Positions 188 through 25,062 of a stretch of DNA of 25,062 nt are shown here, in pieces (the stretch's first letter is position 1; the number at the start of each line of letters is the position of its first letter). The stretch lies in the IMG/VR virus record IMGVR_UViG_2703718822_000004; one strand, written 5' to 3'. The DNA is from a virus (lineage: Duplodnaviria; Heunggongvirae; Uroviricota; Caudoviricetes). The notes beneath the pieces were generated by a model. That model had not been told where the DNA came from. It saw only the letters and a list, made by a program, of their open reading frames with translations, and made no database searches. Position numbers and translations under genes: made by a program.

Positions 188-886
188 TTACTGCGAAAGT
201 TTATTGATGGAAAGGAAACCGCCAAAATTGACCGCCATGCCGCGCATCTCACACCCGCGCATGCATTTACTGCATCTGTCCTTCCGGATATCCGTGGTAG
301 GGTTGTCGAACTCATCCGCCACTGCCGGACCGTTATACCCGCACTCATCGCCCCGGTAATCCCACATACAGGTGTTCGCCAGCATGATGCGACCGGGAAA
401 CAGCGCCCCGTCCGTCTCCGTCGGTGTCGCCAGCACAAACGAGGCCGTCATGGCCGTCAGCGCTGATAACTGCTCCACCACCCACCGGTCCGTCAGCTCC
501 TGCTCCGGGTCTGCCTCCGGATTCCCCGCCACAAAGTTCACCGCATCAAGAAAACGCGCATACACCCGGCGGCGGACCACCGTGGCACCCACCAGGCTCT
601 GCAAATCCTCCGCCATCCCGGTGACAAGGCCGAAAAGATTGGACACCGTCAGCGACGGGCGGGCACTGCTGCCCTTTCCGTTCATCTCAAAGCCGCTGCC
701 CTCAATCGGGTACGCCTGATATTCACGCCCCTGCCAGGTCACCGGCTCCCCTTTTTCATTCAGCTCATTGCAGAAAAAATACCGCTCACCGCCCTGCACC
801 GTCAGGTCGATTTCCCAGAGCACCACCCGCGGTGACTGCTCTGACTTAACCGACTCGTTCAGGCTTTCTTCGTGAATATCCTGCAT
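188..886 (-). CDS. L: Minor tail protein L
   Basis: ORF 188..928; the part from MQDIHEESLNE... aligns along its length with lambda gpL (MQDIRQETLNE...GNFGGFLSINKLSQ). Start set at ATG 884-886 because the upstream in-frame codons overlap a terminator hairpin. Confidence 0.9.
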   Translation of the reverse strand: MQDIHEESLNESVKSEQSPRVVLWEIDLTVQGGERYFFCNELNEKGEPVTWQGREYQAYPIEGSGFEMNGKGSSARPSLTVSNLFGLVTGMAEDLQSLVGATVVRRRVYARFLDAVNFVAGNPEADPEQELTDRWVVEQLSALTAMTASFVLATPTETDGALFPGRIMLANTCMWDYRGDECGYNGPAVADEFDNPTTDIRKDRCSKCMRGCEMRGMAVNFGGFLSINKLSQ

Positions 887-898
887 ATATCCGCCCAT

Positions 899-922
899 AA
901 AAAAGGGGCGCAGACGCGCCCC
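899..922 (-). terminator. Intrinsic terminator downstream of the porin moron, just upstream of L
   Basis: Perfect hairpin GGGGCGC-AGAC-GCGCCCC (905-922) followed on the minus strand by a run of six T (plus-strand A run 899-904). Confidence 0.5.
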
Positions 923-1095
923 GAACAATAAAAGTCCAATTTAAAATAAAACCAATAAAGGTAATAACAGAAAGTTAAATCAGCACATGCCAGATGGCAA
1001 TTGCTGATCGCAGTGACCAATGAAAACTGTGTTTTCATTGATACAGGCCGCCTGTAAGGGCAGACGGCCCGTATTTATTAACTTATCAGCAATAA

Positions 1096-2250
1096 TCAGA
1101 ACTGATAAGTCATACCCACAGCAACGATATTATCTGTCGCAACACCGGCTTTCCGGGTAAATTCACTTTCATCAATCAGGTTAATTTTATAATCAACATA
1201 GGTGGACATATTCTTGTTAAAGTAATAAGTCGCACCGACATCAATATATTTAACCAGATCCTGATCGCCATGGTTCACACCACCAACCATAACATCCTGT
1301 CCGCGGGACTGAAGGTAGGCAAGGGACGGGCGCAGACCAAAATCAAACTGATACTGAACAACGGCTTCGATATTCTGAGCTTTATCCGCAACACCTTGAT
1401 CACCAAAGGTCGTCATATTCTGGGTTTCAGAATACACTGCTGCCAGATACAGGTTATTGGCATCATATTTAAGACCAGTTCCCCAGAATTCAGCATGTTT
1501 ACCTTTTGCCACACTACCTGAGTCAACTGCTTTTTCTCCAACCTTTTTACCTGATGCAGGATCAAGAACATCTGCAGTACCATTCAACCCCTGAACCTGC
1601 TTATCAGTACGATCTGACTTGGTATACGCAGCGACAAAACCAAAACCATCAAACTCATAGCTGGCCGAGAAACCATACCCGTCGCCATTAGCCTTCTGAA
1701 GGTCATCACGCTCATTTTTGCCCTGATACTGCGCCGCAAAATTCAGACCATCAACCAGTCCGAAGAAGTCTGTATTACGGTAAGTCAGGACACCGGAAGT
1801 TCGGGCCGTCATAAAGTTATCGGTCTGCGTCCAGCCATCACCACCAAACTCAGGCAGTACGTCAGTATATGATCCGACATCGTAAGCAATACCATAGTTA
1901 CGTCCGTAATCAATGGTACCAACATCTGCAAATCTCAGACCTGCAAATGCCAGACGGGTTTTATTTCCCGCGGAACCTTCAGATTCCGTTTTATTACCAG
2001 AGAACTGGTATTCCCACTGACCAAATCCGGTCAGTTGATCATTAATCTGCGTTTCGCCTTTAAAGCCGAGACGAGCATAAGTCTGGTCTCCGTCATTACC
2101 TTTATCATCCGAGAAGTAATGCAGAGCGGTTGCACGCCCGTAAAGATCCAGTTTATTACCATCTTTATTATAAACTTCTGCTGCCTGCGCCCCCGCAGCA
2201 AACATCACTGCCACTGCTACAGCAGAAAGTGCCACTGTCATTTTTTTCAT
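1096..2250 (-). CDS. OmpC/OmpF-family general porin (phage-borne moron), with signal peptide
   Basis: 384 aa; signal peptide ...AAGAQA then [15 protein letters not shown]; conserved porin blocks [53 protein letters not shown] and C-terminus [20 protein letters not shown]...YQF, all close to E. coli OmpC as recalled; loop regions diverge. Confidence 0.9.
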
Positions 2251-2448
2251 GATTTAATCCTTATTTAAACTGAACTATTCATGCATTCAGATGTCATGAA
2301 CAAAAATTAAAATATTTTAATACAAATTCTTAGTTCAATTTATATTATGTAACAAAATGTAAATGCAAGATCGATTTCGCACTTTCTGACAAGACAGATT
2401 AAAAATAATTAACAACTAAACACTAAAGAATGATTTATAGGATAATTC
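2251..2448 (-). promoter_or_regulatory. AT-rich upstream region of the porin gene with an OmpR-box-like motif
   Basis: Visibly AT-rich 200 bp between gpM stop and porin start; minus-strand motif TTTACATTTTGTTACATAAT (plus 2345-2364) resembles the OmpR-binding consensus of ompC/ompF promoters as recalled. Promoter hexamers not confidently placed. Confidence 0.35.
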
Positions 2449-2790
2449 TCATCTAACTACCTGCTCTATCGTGCAACTGAAATCACTGTACCGGGCGTTA
2501 TCCGTAATACTCCACTCCCGGCACACCACCCTGACCGTCCGGTTATGTTTCGGGGGCTTCCACAAAAAAGCCCGGTAACCACCATGCCATGACAGAAACG
2601 CGGACAGTGCCTCCCGCTCAGCATCCGTTGTCACCCGAAAAACCACCTGAAAGGTCTTCAGTTGCGCATTCAGTCCTGCCGGACGACGCTGCTGATAACC
2701 GTCGCCAAACTTCACCGTCATCACCGACGGTTTCTCCGTCACCTGCATCCCTTCCCGGGGACACCAGTGAAGAGTCTTAATCTCATCCAC
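2449..2790 (-). CDS. M: Minor tail protein M
   Basis: 113 aa; FGDGYQQRRPAGLNAQLKT...FLWKPP...EQVV pattern matches lambda gpM (FGDGYSQRAPAGLNANLKT...FLWTPP...EQVV); 8-nt overlap with tape measure stop. Confidence 0.85.
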   Translation of the reverse strand: MDEIKTLHWCPREGMQVTEKPSVMTVKFGDGYQQRRPAGLNAQLKTFQVVFRVTTDAEREALSAFLSWHGGYRAFLWKPPKHNRTVRVVCREWSITDNARYSDFSCTIEQVVR

Positions 2791-5700
2791 TCAGCATTCC
2801 TCCGTCACGACGCATGGATAACATCACCGCCTGTACCCGCTGGTCAATCAGTTGCACAAGGGTGCCCGCCGCTTCCGGCCCTATCTGCCCGTTAGCGCCG
2901 TCATTCTGAATGGCGATGTGGTACACCGGGGAATACACCAGACCCGCACTGCCGTTCATACTGCCCACCGCACGCACGCCGAGTGAACCATCCGCTGCCC
3001 GGGTCAGGGGCATGATGGCTTCAGGTCCGGCCTCCCCCATCAGCCCTGCCCCTTTTGCAAAGGCAAAGTACGTGGACGTGTCCACAATACTGTTACTGTA
3101 TGCACTCAGGTTTGCCGAGGTATAAACGCCGCCTTTTGCATTTGCCACCGCGCCACCCAGCCAGTTGCCTATACTGCCGAAAAATCCTCCTGCACCGGAC
3201 ATACTGTTTGCCGCCATCTTAATGCCGTTGACAATGGCCGCATTCATAAGAACTTTTGATATTTCCTGCAGGATTGATGCAGCCCAGCTGCGCCATTCCA
3301 CTTTATTTCCGTTCAGCATCTCCGTGATGTTATTCACCATCCCTGAGATACCGTCTGTCGCAAGCTGTGCTGCCTGTGAAGCGTAATCTGATGCGCTGTC
3401 CACCCAGTTACTTAGCCCTTCCTGCAGCCCTTTCTGCCAGTCAGCACGCTGCGCATCCGATTCGGCATAAAAAGCCTCCTGGTCTTTAAGGCGTTCACTC
3501 AGATACTGCGCATTCTGCGCCAGCGCCTGTCTGTAAAAATCCTCACTGATATCCCCTGTCTGATACTGAGACTGCAGGTCCGCATCCTTCTGGCGGTAGC
3601 CGTCACGAATCTGCTGCAGCTCCCGCATCCGTTCACGGACCCGCTCACCCTGCCCGTACCCCAGCAGCTCAGCGTCATTTGATGCCCTTGCGTCTGCATT
3701 ATCATTTTTCAGGGTCTCCTCCCGGGCCCGTAACTGCTCCCGGATTTTCTTCTGGTCAATCAGGGCAGCATTGCGCAGCAGCTCCTGCTTCTGTATCTCC
3801 GTCAGGGTTTTCAGCTCGCCCTGCGAGGTCTGGTATTTCAGTTTTGCCAGTTCTGTATTCTTCCCGGCCAGTGCCAGTTGTTCCTTCTGCTGCTTCAGCA
3901 GACGGGAAAAACTGTCTTCCGCTTTTTCCGCCCCTGATTTTCCGGCCCGGGATTTGGGTTTATTCGCCTCATTATTGCGCCAGGCTTCCATCGAATTACG
4001 GATGTAACGCTGCCTCGCCTCCTGATACGTATCCCCCACCAGACCAAGGTCATCCGCCGCATACCCCAGCCGGGCACGCTCTTTTTCTTCCCCTTTCAGC
4101 CGGGACAGGGCCAGTTGACGCTCTGTGTTATTCAGGGCGCTCTGCTGTTTATCATCCAGAGTGGCCTGTGGCAGTCGCAGCGGTACACTCGCCAGTCCCT
4201 GACGCTGTTGCAGCAGTTCATTACCCAGCCCCAGCAGGCGGTTGAATTCCGTATGCTGACCGTTCATGACCAGCAGTGACTGATACGCTTTATTCTGCTC
4301 TGCTGCCTGCTGACGAATTAACACAACACGGCGCTCTTCCAGTCCGGCAAGCACATCCTGAATGGACTGCGCTTTTTCCTGCATCTGTGCCAGACGGGAC
4401 TGCTCAACAGCAAACTGCTCTGTTGCCTGAGCAAGCTCTTCCGTTACAGTTTTCACCGATGTCAGATGGTTTATCATGAAGCCGTTACCGGTCGTCCAGC
4501 CCGGATTAGCCAGCACATACTGATACCCGGCGATTTTTTCCTGCAGGGATTTCACCCGGCTGGCCTGCTCATCAATCAGCCGGTTCTGCTCTGTCAGCGC
4601 CTCCCGTGTTCGCCCTTCATTATCTGAGGCTTCAGGCAGAGACATTGATGGCGTTTTATGCGCGATTTCATCAATCGTCAGTGCATACTGGCGCGCAGAC
4701 TCCCTGGCCTGCTCCTGATTCTGGTACAGCGTGTACCATGCGGCAGCTCCCAGCATCACCAGTCCGGGTACGCCTCCAACCAGTCCCAGCGCACCGCTCA
4801 TCAGACGTGAGCCCACCGCCGTTGTACTGTTCAGCGCATTCTGGGCGGCGGTTCTGGCAGCAATATTTCTGTTCAGGCGTTCCTGTGTGACCGCCAGACG
4901 GGCCTCTGCCGCAATCTGCATCTCAGTCCCGCGGGCTGCCGCCACAGCCTGCTGAGCCCGGTACACGGCTGCCCTTGCCCGCGCCGTGGCAATCTGCGTT
5001 CCCCTTAACTGGGCCTCAGCCAGTGCCACTTCATTACGTGCAGCGGTCACAAGTCCTGCCGTGGCAGACATCGCTCCGGAAGCCAGATTACCAAAGTACC
5101 GGGCCACCCCGACAGCAACCAGCACACCCGCAGCTGTTGCCACGGTATCAATATTTCCGGCCACACCGTTCAGTGCGCCGGAGAGCGTTTTCGTCGCTCC
5201 GCTGGCCTCATTCGCGCCGCCCACCCAGGCCATAAAGGCGTTTTCCACCTTCGTGATCCCGTCAGACACCGTTTCCGGCATGGCTGCATATTCATCACGC
5301 AATATCCCCAGCTGGCTGATTAACGCGGGAACGACTTTATCCGCCGTCAGTTGACCATCGTCCGCCATCGCCTTCAGATCCTTACGGGCCACGCCCATGC
5401 CTGCAGCCAGTGCGCGAATGATCCGGTCCCCACTTTCATTGACCGAATTAAATTCCTCGCCGCGCAACACCCCCTGTGCCAGCGCCTGGCTGAACTGGGT
5501 GATCACCGAACCCGCCTCTGCCGCACTGGCACCGGAAATTTTCAGCCCTGTCGAAATGGCCTCCGTCACCTTCAGCACATCATCAGCACTGTAACCATAT
5601 TCACGCATCGAGGCAGCCGAACGGGCAAACAGGGTCGCATTATCCGAAAATGCGGTGCCTGTCCGCTGGCTGATGTCCATCAGCACTTTCTGTGATAACG

Positions 5701-6025
5701 CAAATTCATCCGATGACTGCGACGCCTGTTTCAGACGGGCATTCACGGAGCTCCATTCATCTGCCAGCGAAATCAGGTGTCCGGTGGCAAAGGCACCGGC
5801 AAACGCACTGGTCATTCCGACAGCCGAAGCGCGGATTTCCGTCAACTGGCTGTTCAGCTCAGCCAGAGCCCGGCACTGCTCCCTGGCTGCCGCAGCAGCC
5901 TGACGTCCGCCATTCTGCAGGGTCCGGTAATATTCACTGCCCATACGGGACGCCCGCTGGATCTCCGACTGGAATGACTGTGAATTTGCCGAAATTTTGA
6001 TAATCAGTTCACGTAACGTCGCCAT
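2783..6025 (-). CDS. Tail length tape measure protein
   Basis: 1080-aa ORF between the G/T chaperone pair and M; long Ala/Gln-rich helical, coiled-coil-like middle; glycine-rich C-terminal region; position and size typical of siphovirus tape measure. Confidence 0.85.
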   Translation of the reverse strand: MATLRELIIKISANSQSFQSEIQRASRMGSEYYRTLQNGGRQAAAAAREQCRALAELNSQLTEIRASAVGMTSAFAGAFATGHLISLADEWSSVNARLKQASQSSDEFALSQKVLMDISQRTGTAFSDNATLFARSAASMREYGYSADDVLKVTEAISTGLKISGASAAEAGSVITQFSQALAQGVLRGEEFNSVNESGDRIIRALAAGMGVARKDLKAMADDGQLTADKVVPALISQLGILRDEYAAMPETVSDGITKVENAFMAWVGGANEASGATKTLSGALNGVAGNIDTVATAAGVLVAVGVARYFGNLASGAMSATAGLVTAARNEVALAEAQLRGTQIATARARAAVYRAQQAVAAARGTEMQIAAEARLAVTQERLNRNIAARTAAQNALNSTTAVGSRLMSGALGLVGGVPGLVMLGAAAWYTLYQNQEQARESARQYALTIDEIAHKTPSMSLPEASDNEGRTREALTEQNRLIDEQASRVKSLQEKIAGYQYVLANPGWTTGNGFMINHLTSVKTVTEELAQATEQFAVEQSRLAQMQEKAQSIQDVLAGLEERRVVLIRQQAAEQNKAYQSLLVMNGQHTEFNRLLGLGNELLQQRQGLASVPLRLPQATLDDKQQSALNNTERQLALSRLKGEEKERARLGYAADDLGLVGDTYQEARQRYIRNSMEAWRNNEANKPKSRAGKSGAEKAEDSFSRLLKQQKEQLALAGKNTELAKLKYQTSQGELKTLTEIQKQELLRNAALIDQKKIREQLRAREETLKNDNADARASNDAELLGYGQGERVRERMRELQQIRDGYRQKDADLQSQYQTGDISEDFYRQALAQNAQYLSERLKDQEAFYAESDAQRADWQKGLQEGLSNWVDSASDYASQAAQLATDGISGMVNNITEMLNGNKVEWRSWAASILQEISKVLMNAAIVNGIKMAANSMSGAGGFFGSIGNWLGGAVANAKGGVYTSANLSAYSNSIVDTSTYFAFAKGAGLMGEAGPEAIMPLTRAADGSLGVRAVGSMNGSAGLVYSPVYHIAIQNDGANGQIGPEAAGTLVQLIDQRVQAVMLSMRRDGGMLSG

Positions 6026-24327: not shown

Positions 24328-25062
24328 TTACTTCTGCAAACCGCTCCCGCTAAATACATCCCTGATTTCCTGCGCAGTCTGTTCAAAACGCCCGGTATCC
24401 AGCTCAACGCCAGTTGCACGACGCCCCAGCGCCATCGCGGCTTTGACTGTCGAACCCGACCCCATGAAAAAATCTGCAACCAGGTCACCCGGACGACTGC
24501 TCGCGCTGATTATCTGCTGCAGCATTTCTGCCGGTTTTTCGCACGGATGTTTCCCGGGATAGTACTGCACCGGTTTATGCGTCCACACATCCGTGTACGG
24601 CACCTGCGCCGTCACGCCAAAATACCGCCGCAGATGCTTATATTCACTCTGCAGTTCCGCATACTGCCGGTTCAGTGAAGTATACGTCTCCAGCAGCTGG
24701 TGGTGGGGCTTTTCCAGTTCACCCCGCTGATGCTTCTCTTCTGCCACCCGGGCAAACAGCGCCTGTAATTTCAGATAATCACTTTCGTCCGGCAGTTGCC
24801 ACTGACTGGCACTGAACCAGTGCGACACCATGTTTTTCTTTCCTGTGGCATCCACAATCTGTTTTGCCGTTATCCCCAGGGCAGCGCGCGCATCACGAAA
24901 GTAAGCAATCAGCGGTGCCATCACATGCTGTTTCAGTGCCCTGCCCTTCGCCTCATACCCGGCATCTTTCGGACGATACGGCCCCTGATAATGTTCCGCG
25001 AACAGAATGCGCTCTGTGGCGGGGAAATACGCCCGCAGGCTTTCCTTGTTGCACCCGTTCCA
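24328..25062 (-). CDS. DNA methyltransferase (N6A/N4C beta-class), C-terminal portion; N-terminus beyond window end
   Basis: HPCEKP and DLVADFFMGSGSTVKAAMALGRRATGVELD match the C-terminal catalytic and AdoMet-binding (FxGSG) motifs of the N6_N4 methyltransferase family; the frame stays open to the window edge (translated manually upstream of 24924). Confidence 0.8.
   Translation of the reverse strand, partial: WNGCNKESLRAYFPATERILFAEHYQGPYRPKDAGYEAKGRALKQHVMAPLIAYFRDARAALGITAKQIVDATGKKNMVSHWFSASQWQLPDESDYLKLQALFARVAEEKHQRGELEKPHHQLLETYTSLNRQYAELQSEYKHLRRYFGVTAQVPYTDVWTHKPVQYYPGKHPCEKPAEMLQQIISASSRPGDLVADFFMGSGSTVKAAMALGRRATGVELDTGRFEQTAQEIRDVFSGSGLQK

Follow-up and report, generated by a model that had tools for sequence, protein, structure and literature searches.

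Introduction

Lambdoid phages can carry genes for general bacterial porins, the closest described examples being the lc-ipeX locus of phage PA-2 and the nmpC-ipeX locus of DLP12, found also in 434, P7, mEp and ev phages. Lysogens of such phages make the phage porin and have their OmpC and OmpF lowered by IpeX (PMC5069750; PMC8065619), an RNA present on DLP12 and PA-2 that represses both host porins (PMC5069750; PMC8065619; PMC3333887). Here we describe a porin cassette of 1.56 kb in a 25,062-nt stretch of caudoviral DNA (IMG/VR record IMGVR_UViG_2703718822_000004; the whole stretch is called the window below). In our judgment it is probably an autonomous porin-replacement, that is lysogenic-conversion, cassette and a relocated, diverged paralogue of lc-ipeX and nmpC-ipeX.

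The cassette shares with lc and nmpC a general porin with a related signal peptide (MKKLTVAISAVA.. in lc and nmpC), an OmpR-type element upstream, and a 3′ untranslated region (3′UTR) in which three hairpins precede an unpaired CUGUUAU..ACC..UUUAUU seed and a terminator rich in GC. It differs from them in its location, as lc and nmpC occupy the opposite strand in the interval from Q to the lysis genes, whereas the cassette lies between tail genes M and L and is co-directional with late transcription. Furthermore, the porins share only 67-71% protein identity and form separate clades, the hairpins are unrelated at the primary level, the cassette porin has a long hypervariable loop 5 (L5), and the OmpR element of lc and nmpC overlaps a TTGAAA hexamer while the box of the cassette abuts a candidate -35. 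More distantly, svsR of NC-SV is a prophage small RNA (sRNA) that lowers LamB (PMC12247714) and is conceptually alike, as a prophage RNA that cuts an outer-membrane receptor and phage adsorption; it is unrelated in sequence, has another target and comes with no replacement porin.

As a porin moron the cassette belongs to a known kind of element and will not surprise a specialist. New are the relocated, diverged IpeX-class RNA, its anti-ompC seed, the geometry of the OmpR site and the hypervariable loop; all are testable and relevant to the surface biology of Shiga-toxin-producing E. coli (STEC). In the literature searched we came across no account of a porin placed between M and L.

A porin cassette at the M-L junction

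The window corresponds to the late gene region of a lambda-like prophage of E. coli, described below in minus-strand orientation. The insert occupies positions 887-2448 at the junction of the M stop and the L start, within the following arrangement:

2783-6025, minus strand: tape-measure gene H
2449-2790, minus strand: tail gene M, 113 amino acids (Pfam PF05939 Phage_min_tail, E-value 3e-33)
1096-2250, minus strand: porin coding sequence, 384 amino acids (Pfam PF00267 Porin_1, E-value 6e-144, profile positions 1-337 of 337)
896-1095, minus strand: IpeX-like structured 3′UTR, 200 nt
896-890, minus strand: GGGCGGA resembling a Shine-Dalgarno (SD) sequence for L, adjoining the 3′ end of the terminator U-run
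188-886, minus strand: tail gene L, ATG at 886 (Pfam PF05100 Phage_tail_L, E-value 8e-93)

In phage BP-4795, which lacks the insert, comparison of the junction shows that the M stop and the L start overlap as TGATG. Homology between the window and BP-4795 ends at the end of M and restarts at the L start codon, and because of the overlapping TGATG the insert can be placed exactly at this junction. The TGA stop of M in the window stands within AGATGA, a remnant of the overlap. The GC content is 45% in the porin gene, 23% in the 198 bp upstream and 41% downstream, compared with 55-59% in M, L and H.

These results bear out most of the initial annotation, which had been made from the letters alone and had read the region as a moron. 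The M and L genes are indeed split by an insert with a complete porin gene, an AT-rich upstream region and a terminator, all on the minus strand, and the comparison with a relative lacking the insert, which had been suggested, yielded the empty site. Judged from its sequence, the cassette has the structure of a moron, with foreign GC content, an empty site in BP-4795, its own terminator and a conserved upstream region. The extent originally assigned, 1096-2448, includes the porin and its upstream region but omits the 3′ 210 nt of the cassette (887-1095), the most informative part.

Classical lambdoid morons are lom and bor of lambda and those of HK97 and HK022, as defined by Hendrix and colleagues. 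Like them, the cassette is an extra transcription unit with a promoter (here a candidate) and a terminator of its own, placed between genes that are adjacent in relatives and deviating in GC content. It differs from them by a cargo that comprises a protein and a predicted regulatory RNA, and by breaking a coupled gene pair, for which it supplies L with a new ribosome-binding site (RBS). L is no longer translationally coupled to M and has gained an SD-like element of its own; the corresponding GGG[C/T]GGA is kept in the variants that retain L.

Over its first 9.7 kb the window shares 99.5% identity with an E. coli N51 prophage that is inserted close to yciE, beside what remains of ompW. The annotation of that prophage lists the same genes, and the porin open reading frame (ORF) bears the RefSeq name “ompC: porin OmpC”. 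Over its entire length the window had no match in any complete E. coli genome; past ~18 kb it is a mosaic when compared with the N51 prophage.

An IpeX-like structured 3′UTR

A terminator hairpin ahead of L had been noted before, and it was confirmed at 922-905; the stretch after the porin stop codon is, however, more than a terminator and holds a structured RNA over its 200 nt. In the order of transcription, three hairpins are followed by an unpaired AU-rich stretch and the terminator:

1074-1041, minus strand: hairpin HP1
1040-1018, minus strand: hairpin HP2
1009-978, minus strand: hairpin HP3
947-979, minus strand: unpaired seed UUUAACUUUCUGUUAUUACCUUUAUUGGUUUUA, complementary to ompC mRNA from -37 to ~-4
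899-922, minus strand: intrinsic terminator with a 7-bp all-GC stem, a 4-nt loop and U6, present in all variants

The 3′UTR folds with a z-score of -8.1 against shuffled controls. In an alignment of nine 3′UTR sequences, which was fitted to the structure model, 95.9% of the cells pair and 25 pairs show compensatory changes, a result reached by none of 500 shuffles; slid controls gave 2-6 compensatory pairs. The terminator hairpin, GGGGCGC-GTCT-GCGCCCC followed by six T, ends 12 nt ahead of the L start and is the only terminator-like site with seven GC pairs in the region. Two of its pairs show compensatory change once ipeX is included. A 59-amino-acid ORF at 859-1038 overlying the 3′UTR was rejected as non-coding, having no Pfam hit and a frame that is broken in the variants by indels of 13 nt and of 1-2 nt. 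By its sequence features the RNA would fit a trans-acting, 3′UTR-derived sRNA of the Hfq type: a U-tailed terminator after a U-rich stretch, a conserved unpaired seed and a complementary target.

Downstream of lc and nmpC, in the stretch that Castillo-Keller et al. 2006 reportedly described as ipeX, three hairpins are followed by CUUCUGUUAUAUAUUACCCUUUAUU and a terminator rich in GC. A covariance model for which the M-L 3′UTRs alone were used recognised the regions after lc and nmpC in full length (33.5 bits, rough E-value ~1e-6). It also matched directly after the porin stop in all 30 M-L-type and all 10 sampled nmpC-type viral contigs, and at none of eight chromosomal porin loci from other genera. 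The seeds resemble each other as well (CTTCTGTTATATATTACCCTTTATT in ipeX, CTTTCTGTTATTACCTTTATT in the window). On the strength of the covariance-model hits and the shared architecture and seed we regard the 3′UTR as a structural homologue of IpeX with low primary-sequence similarity.

Predicted pairing with ompC mRNA

The seed core, TTATTACCTT / UUAUUACCUU, is invariant within the M-L clade while its flanks diverge, and the 3′UTR contains the seed segment UUAUUACC. By manual comparison, the unpaired stretch at ~979-947 is 81% identical over 31 nt to the antisense of the ompC leader, and a nhmmer search with the 3′UTR alignment reached the antisense of the ompC RBS at an E-value of 0.08. The ompC segment predicted to pair is the MicC pairing region plus the SD sequence; of 5426 E. 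coli genomes, 5365 have an ompC leader with 99% identity or more. Predicted duplexes are given below with their energy and rank, the rank counting how many of 1500 genomic 70-nt background windows form a duplex of equal or better energy:

Window seed with ompC (-37 to ~-4): -28.5 kcal/mol, rank 0/1500
L004-type seed with ompC: -24.0 kcal/mol, rank 4/1500
ipeX seed with ompC: -26.7 kcal/mol, rank 1/1500
Window seed with ompF: -21.2 kcal/mol, rank 19/1500
Window seed with the cassette's own RBS: -18.4 kcal/mol, rank 94/1500, not significant
MicF with ompF (control): -27.4 kcal/mol, rank 0/1500

Across the three seeds, ompF ranked 19-40. MicC, a genuine regulator of ompC, ranked 45/1500 in the same test, which is therefore imperfect. 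The simplest reading of these data is an IpeX-class RNA that would pair with the translation-initiation region of ompC and, more weakly, with that of ompF. This complementarity would offer a concrete mechanism for the change in receptors or the superinfection exclusion that the initial annotation had proposed; the effects on antibiotic permeability that it had also raised are speculation. The cassette adds a second, diverged IpeX-class RNA, and comparing the two brings out a conserved seed with complementarity to the ompC leader, which makes the mechanism of IpeX directly testable.

MicC itself is similar in that its 5′ end (GUUAUAUGCCUUUAUUG) resembles the cassette seed (GUUAUUACCUUUAUUGG) and targets the same segment of the ompC leader. 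MicC is a free-standing gene, however, while the cassette seed lies in a 3′UTR and its complementarity reaches into the ompC SD sequence. An Rfam scan of positions 700-2900 at E-values of up to 1 returned a chance NsiR9 hit only, with no match to MicC or MicF, the search for MicC being backed by a positive control; the ipeX-bearing lc locus (L012) likewise gave no Rfam hit.

The same data could be explained if the cassette were a porin moron only, with hairpins that stabilise the mRNA and terminate it. The ompC complementarity would then be a by-product of AU-rich, SD-like sequence, and any drop in host porins would come about through competition for Sec and BAM or through envelope-stress feedback. 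The seed is indeed AU-rich and anti-SD-like, homology to ipeX by sequence alone is marginal, and MicC reached just 45/1500 in the crude duplex test. Yet the seed core is invariant where its flanks diverge, ompC ranks 0, 4 and 1 of 1500 for the window, L004-type and ipeX seeds, the RBS of the cassette itself is not targeted, and the whole architecture recurs in an RNA whose repression of OmpC and OmpF is established. We therefore consider this explanation unlikely and prefer that of an IpeX-class RNA.

The porin mRNA may also be subject to host sRNAs. At codons 5-7 (2237-2231, minus strand) it carries the RybB-seed-like sequence CAGTGGC (CAGUGGC in the RNA), complementary to the 5′ end of RybB. 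This heptamer is invariant in all M-L porin alleles and is found in ompC, ompF and lc as well; nmpC was reported as a RybB target (PMC3333887). The phage porin may thus still be shut off by the sigma-E/RybB envelope-stress response of the host. Target sites for MicC and MicF in the porin mRNA did not exceed chance (z-scores of -1 to 0).

An OmpR-like box next to a candidate promoter

The upstream region contains the following elements:

2380-2395, minus strand: conserved block GTCTTGTCAGAAAGTG, of which GTCTT..CA.AAAGTG is kept in diverged cassettes
2344-2363, minus strand: OmpR-box-like 20-mer TTTACATTTTGTTACATAAT with two TTACA half-sites 10 bp apart
2338-2333, minus strand: candidate sigma-70 -35 element TTGAAC
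2314-2309, minus strand: candidate -10 element TATTTT, separated from the -35 by an 18-nt spacer
~2302, minus strand: predicted transcriptional start site (TSS)
2251-2302, minus strand: predicted 5′UTR of ~52 nt
2262-2258, minus strand: SD sequence AAGGA

The motif TTTACATTTTGTTACAT, which had prompted the suggestion of OmpR control, is present exactly at 2363-2347, with a chance expectation of 0.04 even if two mismatches are allowed. The box agrees at 16 of 17 positions with the OmpR repeat GTTACATTTTGTTACAT from chromatin immunoprecipitation with exonuclease digestion (ChIP-exo; PMC5438342), at 17 of 20 with ompF F1 and at 15 of 20 with ompC C1. Both TTACA cores are kept in eight diverged cassettes, and 29 of 30 IMG/VR contigs have the box, the remaining contig being cut at the porin start. 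The suggested motif is thus well founded in silico, by its match, its conservation and its fixed spacing.

In eight variants the box is followed by 5 nt, TTGAA[C/T] (TTGGAA in the outgroup), 18 nt (16 in one) and TATTTT. Upstream indels are confined to the part downstream of TATTTT, and the distance from TATTTT to the ATG varies from 51 to 66 nt. The 5-nt gap between box and -35 equals that from ompC C3 and ompF F3 of K-12 to their -35 hexamers. The fixed spacing and the C3/F3-like gap therefore favour a promoter at 2338-2309 with a single high-affinity OmpR site. An activator-type position of this site is accordingly favoured, next to what is a candidate promoter: its -35 and -10 are conserved at fixed spacing and match the consensus weakly. 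An ompC-like geometry, with the box near -100, ATGACA/TTGTTC as -35 and a 5′UTR of ~15 nt, was judged less likely, as some variants have indels inside that putative promoter. The TSS of nmpC is known to be a G, but the alignment with nmpC was too ambiguous for the promoter position to be transferred.

Alternatively, the box could be a repressor site, as in nmpC, or bind another regulator, and the cassette would be switched on when phosphorylated OmpR is low or by other signals rather than being co-induced with ompC. Indeed, nmpC is repressed by OmpR and activated by CRP (PMC5438342; PMC11677980), and the element CTTACATCTTGAAAT of lc and nmpC, which is related to the box, overlaps the TTGAAA hexamer; moreover, the promoter of the cassette is predicted only. 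Against this, the box ends 5 nt upstream of the candidate -35 in all eight variants, like the activating C3 and F3 sites and without overlapping the promoter, and no CRP-like site was noticed, although no formal scan for one was made. Repression by OmpR is in our view the less likely arrangement but one to be taken seriously, and we continue to prefer the activator-type site.

Compared with chromosomal ompC, the cassette has one OmpR site, nearly identical to C1 and F1, in place of three, and it lacks the divergent micF and any MicC or MicF target in its mRNA. Two smaller features were seen in this region. The 5′UTR has a conserved inverted repeat, TTCATG..CATGAA, forming a weakly supported hairpin (-3.2 kcal/mol). 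The block at 2380-2395 ends ~16 nt upstream of the OmpR-like box, and its AAAGTG is found also in a related non-phage locus, L016 (see below).

A general porin related to Lc and NmpC

The protein itself has these features:

2250-2182, minus strand: signal peptide
1854-1837, minus strand: motif PEFGGD of loop 3 (L3)
1495-1611, minus strand: hypervariable surface loop, residues 214-252, L5 by alignment to OmpC and OmpF

The closest solved structures are OmpC, PhoE, OmpK36 and OmpF (PDB, E-values from 1e-131 to 1e-111). An AlphaFold2 (AF2) model reached a predicted local distance difference test score of 72, with low confidence in the L3 region, and a Foldseek comparison with OmpC and OmpK36 gave a target-normalised template-modelling score of 0.86. 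In the alignment, PEFGGD and the arginines and acids of the eyelet are conserved, fold, eyelet and L3 motif being shared with chromosomal OmpC, and the C-terminus is YQF, ending in Phe. By these comparisons the protein is a general bacterial porin of the OmpC/OmpF/PhoE type, with a predicted 16-strand barrel, an intact constriction loop and a Sec signal peptide.

Identity is 65% to OmpC and 62-63% to OmpF, PhoE and OmpN; porins of the Lc, NmpC and OmpD type are closer, at 71-74%. The cassette porins form a clade of their own in a distance tree, sister to Lc/NmpC/OmpD and apart from OmpC/OmpN, and their type of signal peptide is common to Lc, NmpC and OmpD. The RefSeq label stems from the NCBIfam subfamily model “porin OmpC”, which the protein passes narrowly (507.7 against a cutoff of 484). 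An OmpC orthologue was rejected in view of the 65% identity, the separate clade, the absence of the OmpC-specific loop 4 (L4) insertion from the alignment, and a locus between M and L rather than next to micF/rcsD. Of the earlier “OmpC-family” assignment the general porin family stands, while orthology to OmpC does not, the protein grouping with Lc, NmpC and OmpD; the phage porins Lc and NmpC, cited there as precedent, proved to be members of the sister clade. We predict that the cassette is an antagonist of ompC, not its orthologue, and the label “porin OmpC” hides both its phage origin and this likely antagonism.

Selection and a hypervariable loop

Outside the loop, pairwise ratios of non-synonymous to synonymous substitution rates (dN/dS) were 0.04-0.09 at dS values of 0.4-1.3, and the ORF is intact in all copies fetched. 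Such low dN/dS over large dS means that the gene has been kept as a working protein through long divergence. An inert passenger, a captured, silent and decaying porin gene, would not be expected to show an intact ORF in every copy, low dN/dS over saturating dS, or non-coding elements conserved with compensatory changes; because of the selection analysis we consider it effectively refuted and exceedingly improbable.

The differences from OmpC and OmpF and among the alleles sit in loops, in line with the conserved barrel and divergent loops first described for this gene. Most prominent is L5, which ranges from ~9 to ~47 residues across the alleles while the barrel is ~95% conserved. In the window allele it has ~34 residues and is modelled as an extra beta-hairpin (AF2 strands 222-229 and 236-243). 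Inside the loop dN/dS rises to 0.13-0.40, a pattern of variation suggesting that phages, colicins or antibodies exert pressure on an epitope at the surface.

Distribution and alleles

The full cassette was found in 109 of 5426 complete E. coli genomes (~2%). Many of these are STEC, from humans, cattle and food, and several E. coli genomes have 2-6 places matching the cassette, some carrying it in more than one prophage. M and L flank it in all five annotated E. coli loci, and in 30 of 30 IMG/VR contigs carrying a relative of at least 84% identity M and L lie on either side, judged as far as each contig reaches. Diverged alleles, with 84-92% protein identity and flanks of 74-92%, occupy the same junction, and the M-L location recurs in a Citrobacter farmeri prophage. 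Among 50,697 deposited phage genomes none had the cassette, and the porins found there were Lc/NmpC-type, 67-69% identical. No homologue above 68% was detected in the species-representative genomes of 185,579 species.

Three IMG/VR contigs that share one IMG genome identifier, 643348545_000008, _000009 and _000013 (L125, L129 and L130), are three different prophage contigs, each with the order M, porin, L.

Some relatives lie outside intact prophages. The E. coli contigs L017 and L018 (protein P0018) carry an 82%-identical porin allele with its upstream region in decayed prophage remnants containing an M fragment. L018 has kept a complete IpeX-like 3′UTR next to a broken L, and in L017 the 3′UTR is cut before the terminator, beside an IS66 element. 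Both look like cassettes domesticated following phage loss. In surroundings that are not phage-derived, the E. coli contig L016 carries a 77%-identical porin (protein P0027) next to a gene for CdiI-type immunity; this copy has the same layout of OmpR-type box, -35/-10 spacing, hairpins and terminator, and differs in the seed region. L016 could be an ancestral or an alternative carrier of the cassette.

A model for lysogeny and lytic growth

If the cassette serves porin replacement, it would be transcribed in the lysogen from its own weak sigma-70 promoter (-35 at 2338-2333, -10 at 2314-2309), governed by host OmpR bound at the consensus site that abuts the -35, in the activator-type position of C3 and F3. 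The mRNA would yield the phage porin, to be exported and assembled, and its 3′UTR, within the mRNA or as a processed sRNA, would pair with ompC (and ompF) mRNA, whereupon host porin synthesis would fall. Surface OmpC would be replaced by a loop-variant porin, keeping permeability while a common phage and colicin receptor is gone. In the prophage the terminator would keep L, K, I and J from being expressed. In the lytic cycle, late transcription antiterminated by Q would pass through the cassette, and L would be translated from its own new RBS. Read-through of terminators by Q-modified polymerase is established lambda biology, and a Q antiterminator gene lies upstream in the near-identical N51 prophage.

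Several observations weigh against this model. The window-type and L004-type seeds are predicted to pair with the ompC leader in different registers. In the original IpeX paper, simple complementarity to ompC was reportedly lacking and the effect on ompC was reportedly independent of Hfq; should this hold, the mechanism may be something other than base pairing. The nhmmer search with the 3′UTR alignment reached lc and nmpC through the terminator only (E-value 0.02). E-values of the covariance model are rough, and an unrelated region with hairpins and a terminator scored 20.9 bits; it lies at L019 4154-4292 in the N51 prophage, not in the window, between a TerB-like gene and a helix-turn-helix gene, and is probably noise. 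The margin of the 33-bit ipeX hits over noise is therefore real but modest. The candidate promoter matches the consensus at 8 of 12 positions, under the threshold of a consensus scan, and an ompC-like geometry with a very short 5′UTR is a less likely but conceivable arrangement. Finally, OmpR represses the sister gene nmpC (PMC5438342).

The function could instead be mainly lytic. A Q-driven burst of anti-ompC RNA, and of porin, would strip the receptor of the phage itself, so that progeny are not lost on debris, and expression in the lysogen would be secondary. The cassette is co-oriented with the tail genes, where lc and nmpC are antisense to late transcription, and among PDB entries the receptor-binding domain of J from the N51 prophage comes nearest to a gpJ whose structure was determined together with OmpC (9wca/9wcb; 361 bits, versus 298 for lambda J). 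This similarity is moderate in the actual binding subdomain, however. A purely late gene would need neither the conserved upstream region nor the terminator, and the cassette and its upstream region survive in decayed prophages and in a non-phage context. Besides, pre-existing OmpC is stable, and late repression would remove little receptor. A mainly lytic role therefore seems quite doubtful to us, and replacement of the porin in the lysogen is preferred.

The C-terminal receptor-binding region of J (L001 13794-14693, in the N51 prophage and outside the window) is nearest to “A8 gpJ 713”, solved with OmpC of E. coli EDL933 (9wca/9wcb), and shares 90% identity with the J of several Stx2a-converting phages. 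Phages of this lineage may use OmpC as their receptor. The closest deposited phages are Stx2a phages, and the PDB similarity to an OmpC-binding gpJ is suggestive only.

Both modes might also be combined in a receptor-removal device whose place in the tail operon is next to the genes for receptor binding. Host OmpR would, in the lysogen, drive a swap of OmpC for the phage porin with its variable surface loop by means of the anti-ompC RNA; on induction, Q read-through would produce a flood of this RNA and so halt the making of new receptor; and an OmpC-binding J would be the selective reason for the M-L site. We put this forward tentatively, as an improbable though coherent extension of porin replacement. 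If true, the lysogen would exclude its own kind as well as other OmpC-dependent phages and colicins, and IpeX-class RNAs would work by pairing directly with the ompC leader, at variance with what the original report is said to have concluded.

Should porin replacement itself be true, lysogens would display a different major porin. This would bear on colicin sensitivity, antibody recognition and beta-lactam entry, and also on phage typing and phage therapy, because OmpC is a common phage receptor.

Other genes in the window

Two further ORFs lie in the part of the window that is remote from the cassette. An ORF at 18396-18845 (minus strand) with the N-terminal domain of the P22 antirepressor (P22_AR_N, E-value 6e-46) is located just downstream, in the direction of late transcription, of the lysozyme gene at 19116-19649. 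An ORF of 241 amino acids at 23539-24264 (minus strand) encodes an AraC-family regulator (HTH_18/HTH_AraC) between the late-gene regulator and the lysis genes. It adjoins a DNA methylase ORF (24328-24924), lies downstream of a NanS-p-type sialate esterase (20242-22206) and is probably another cargo gene.

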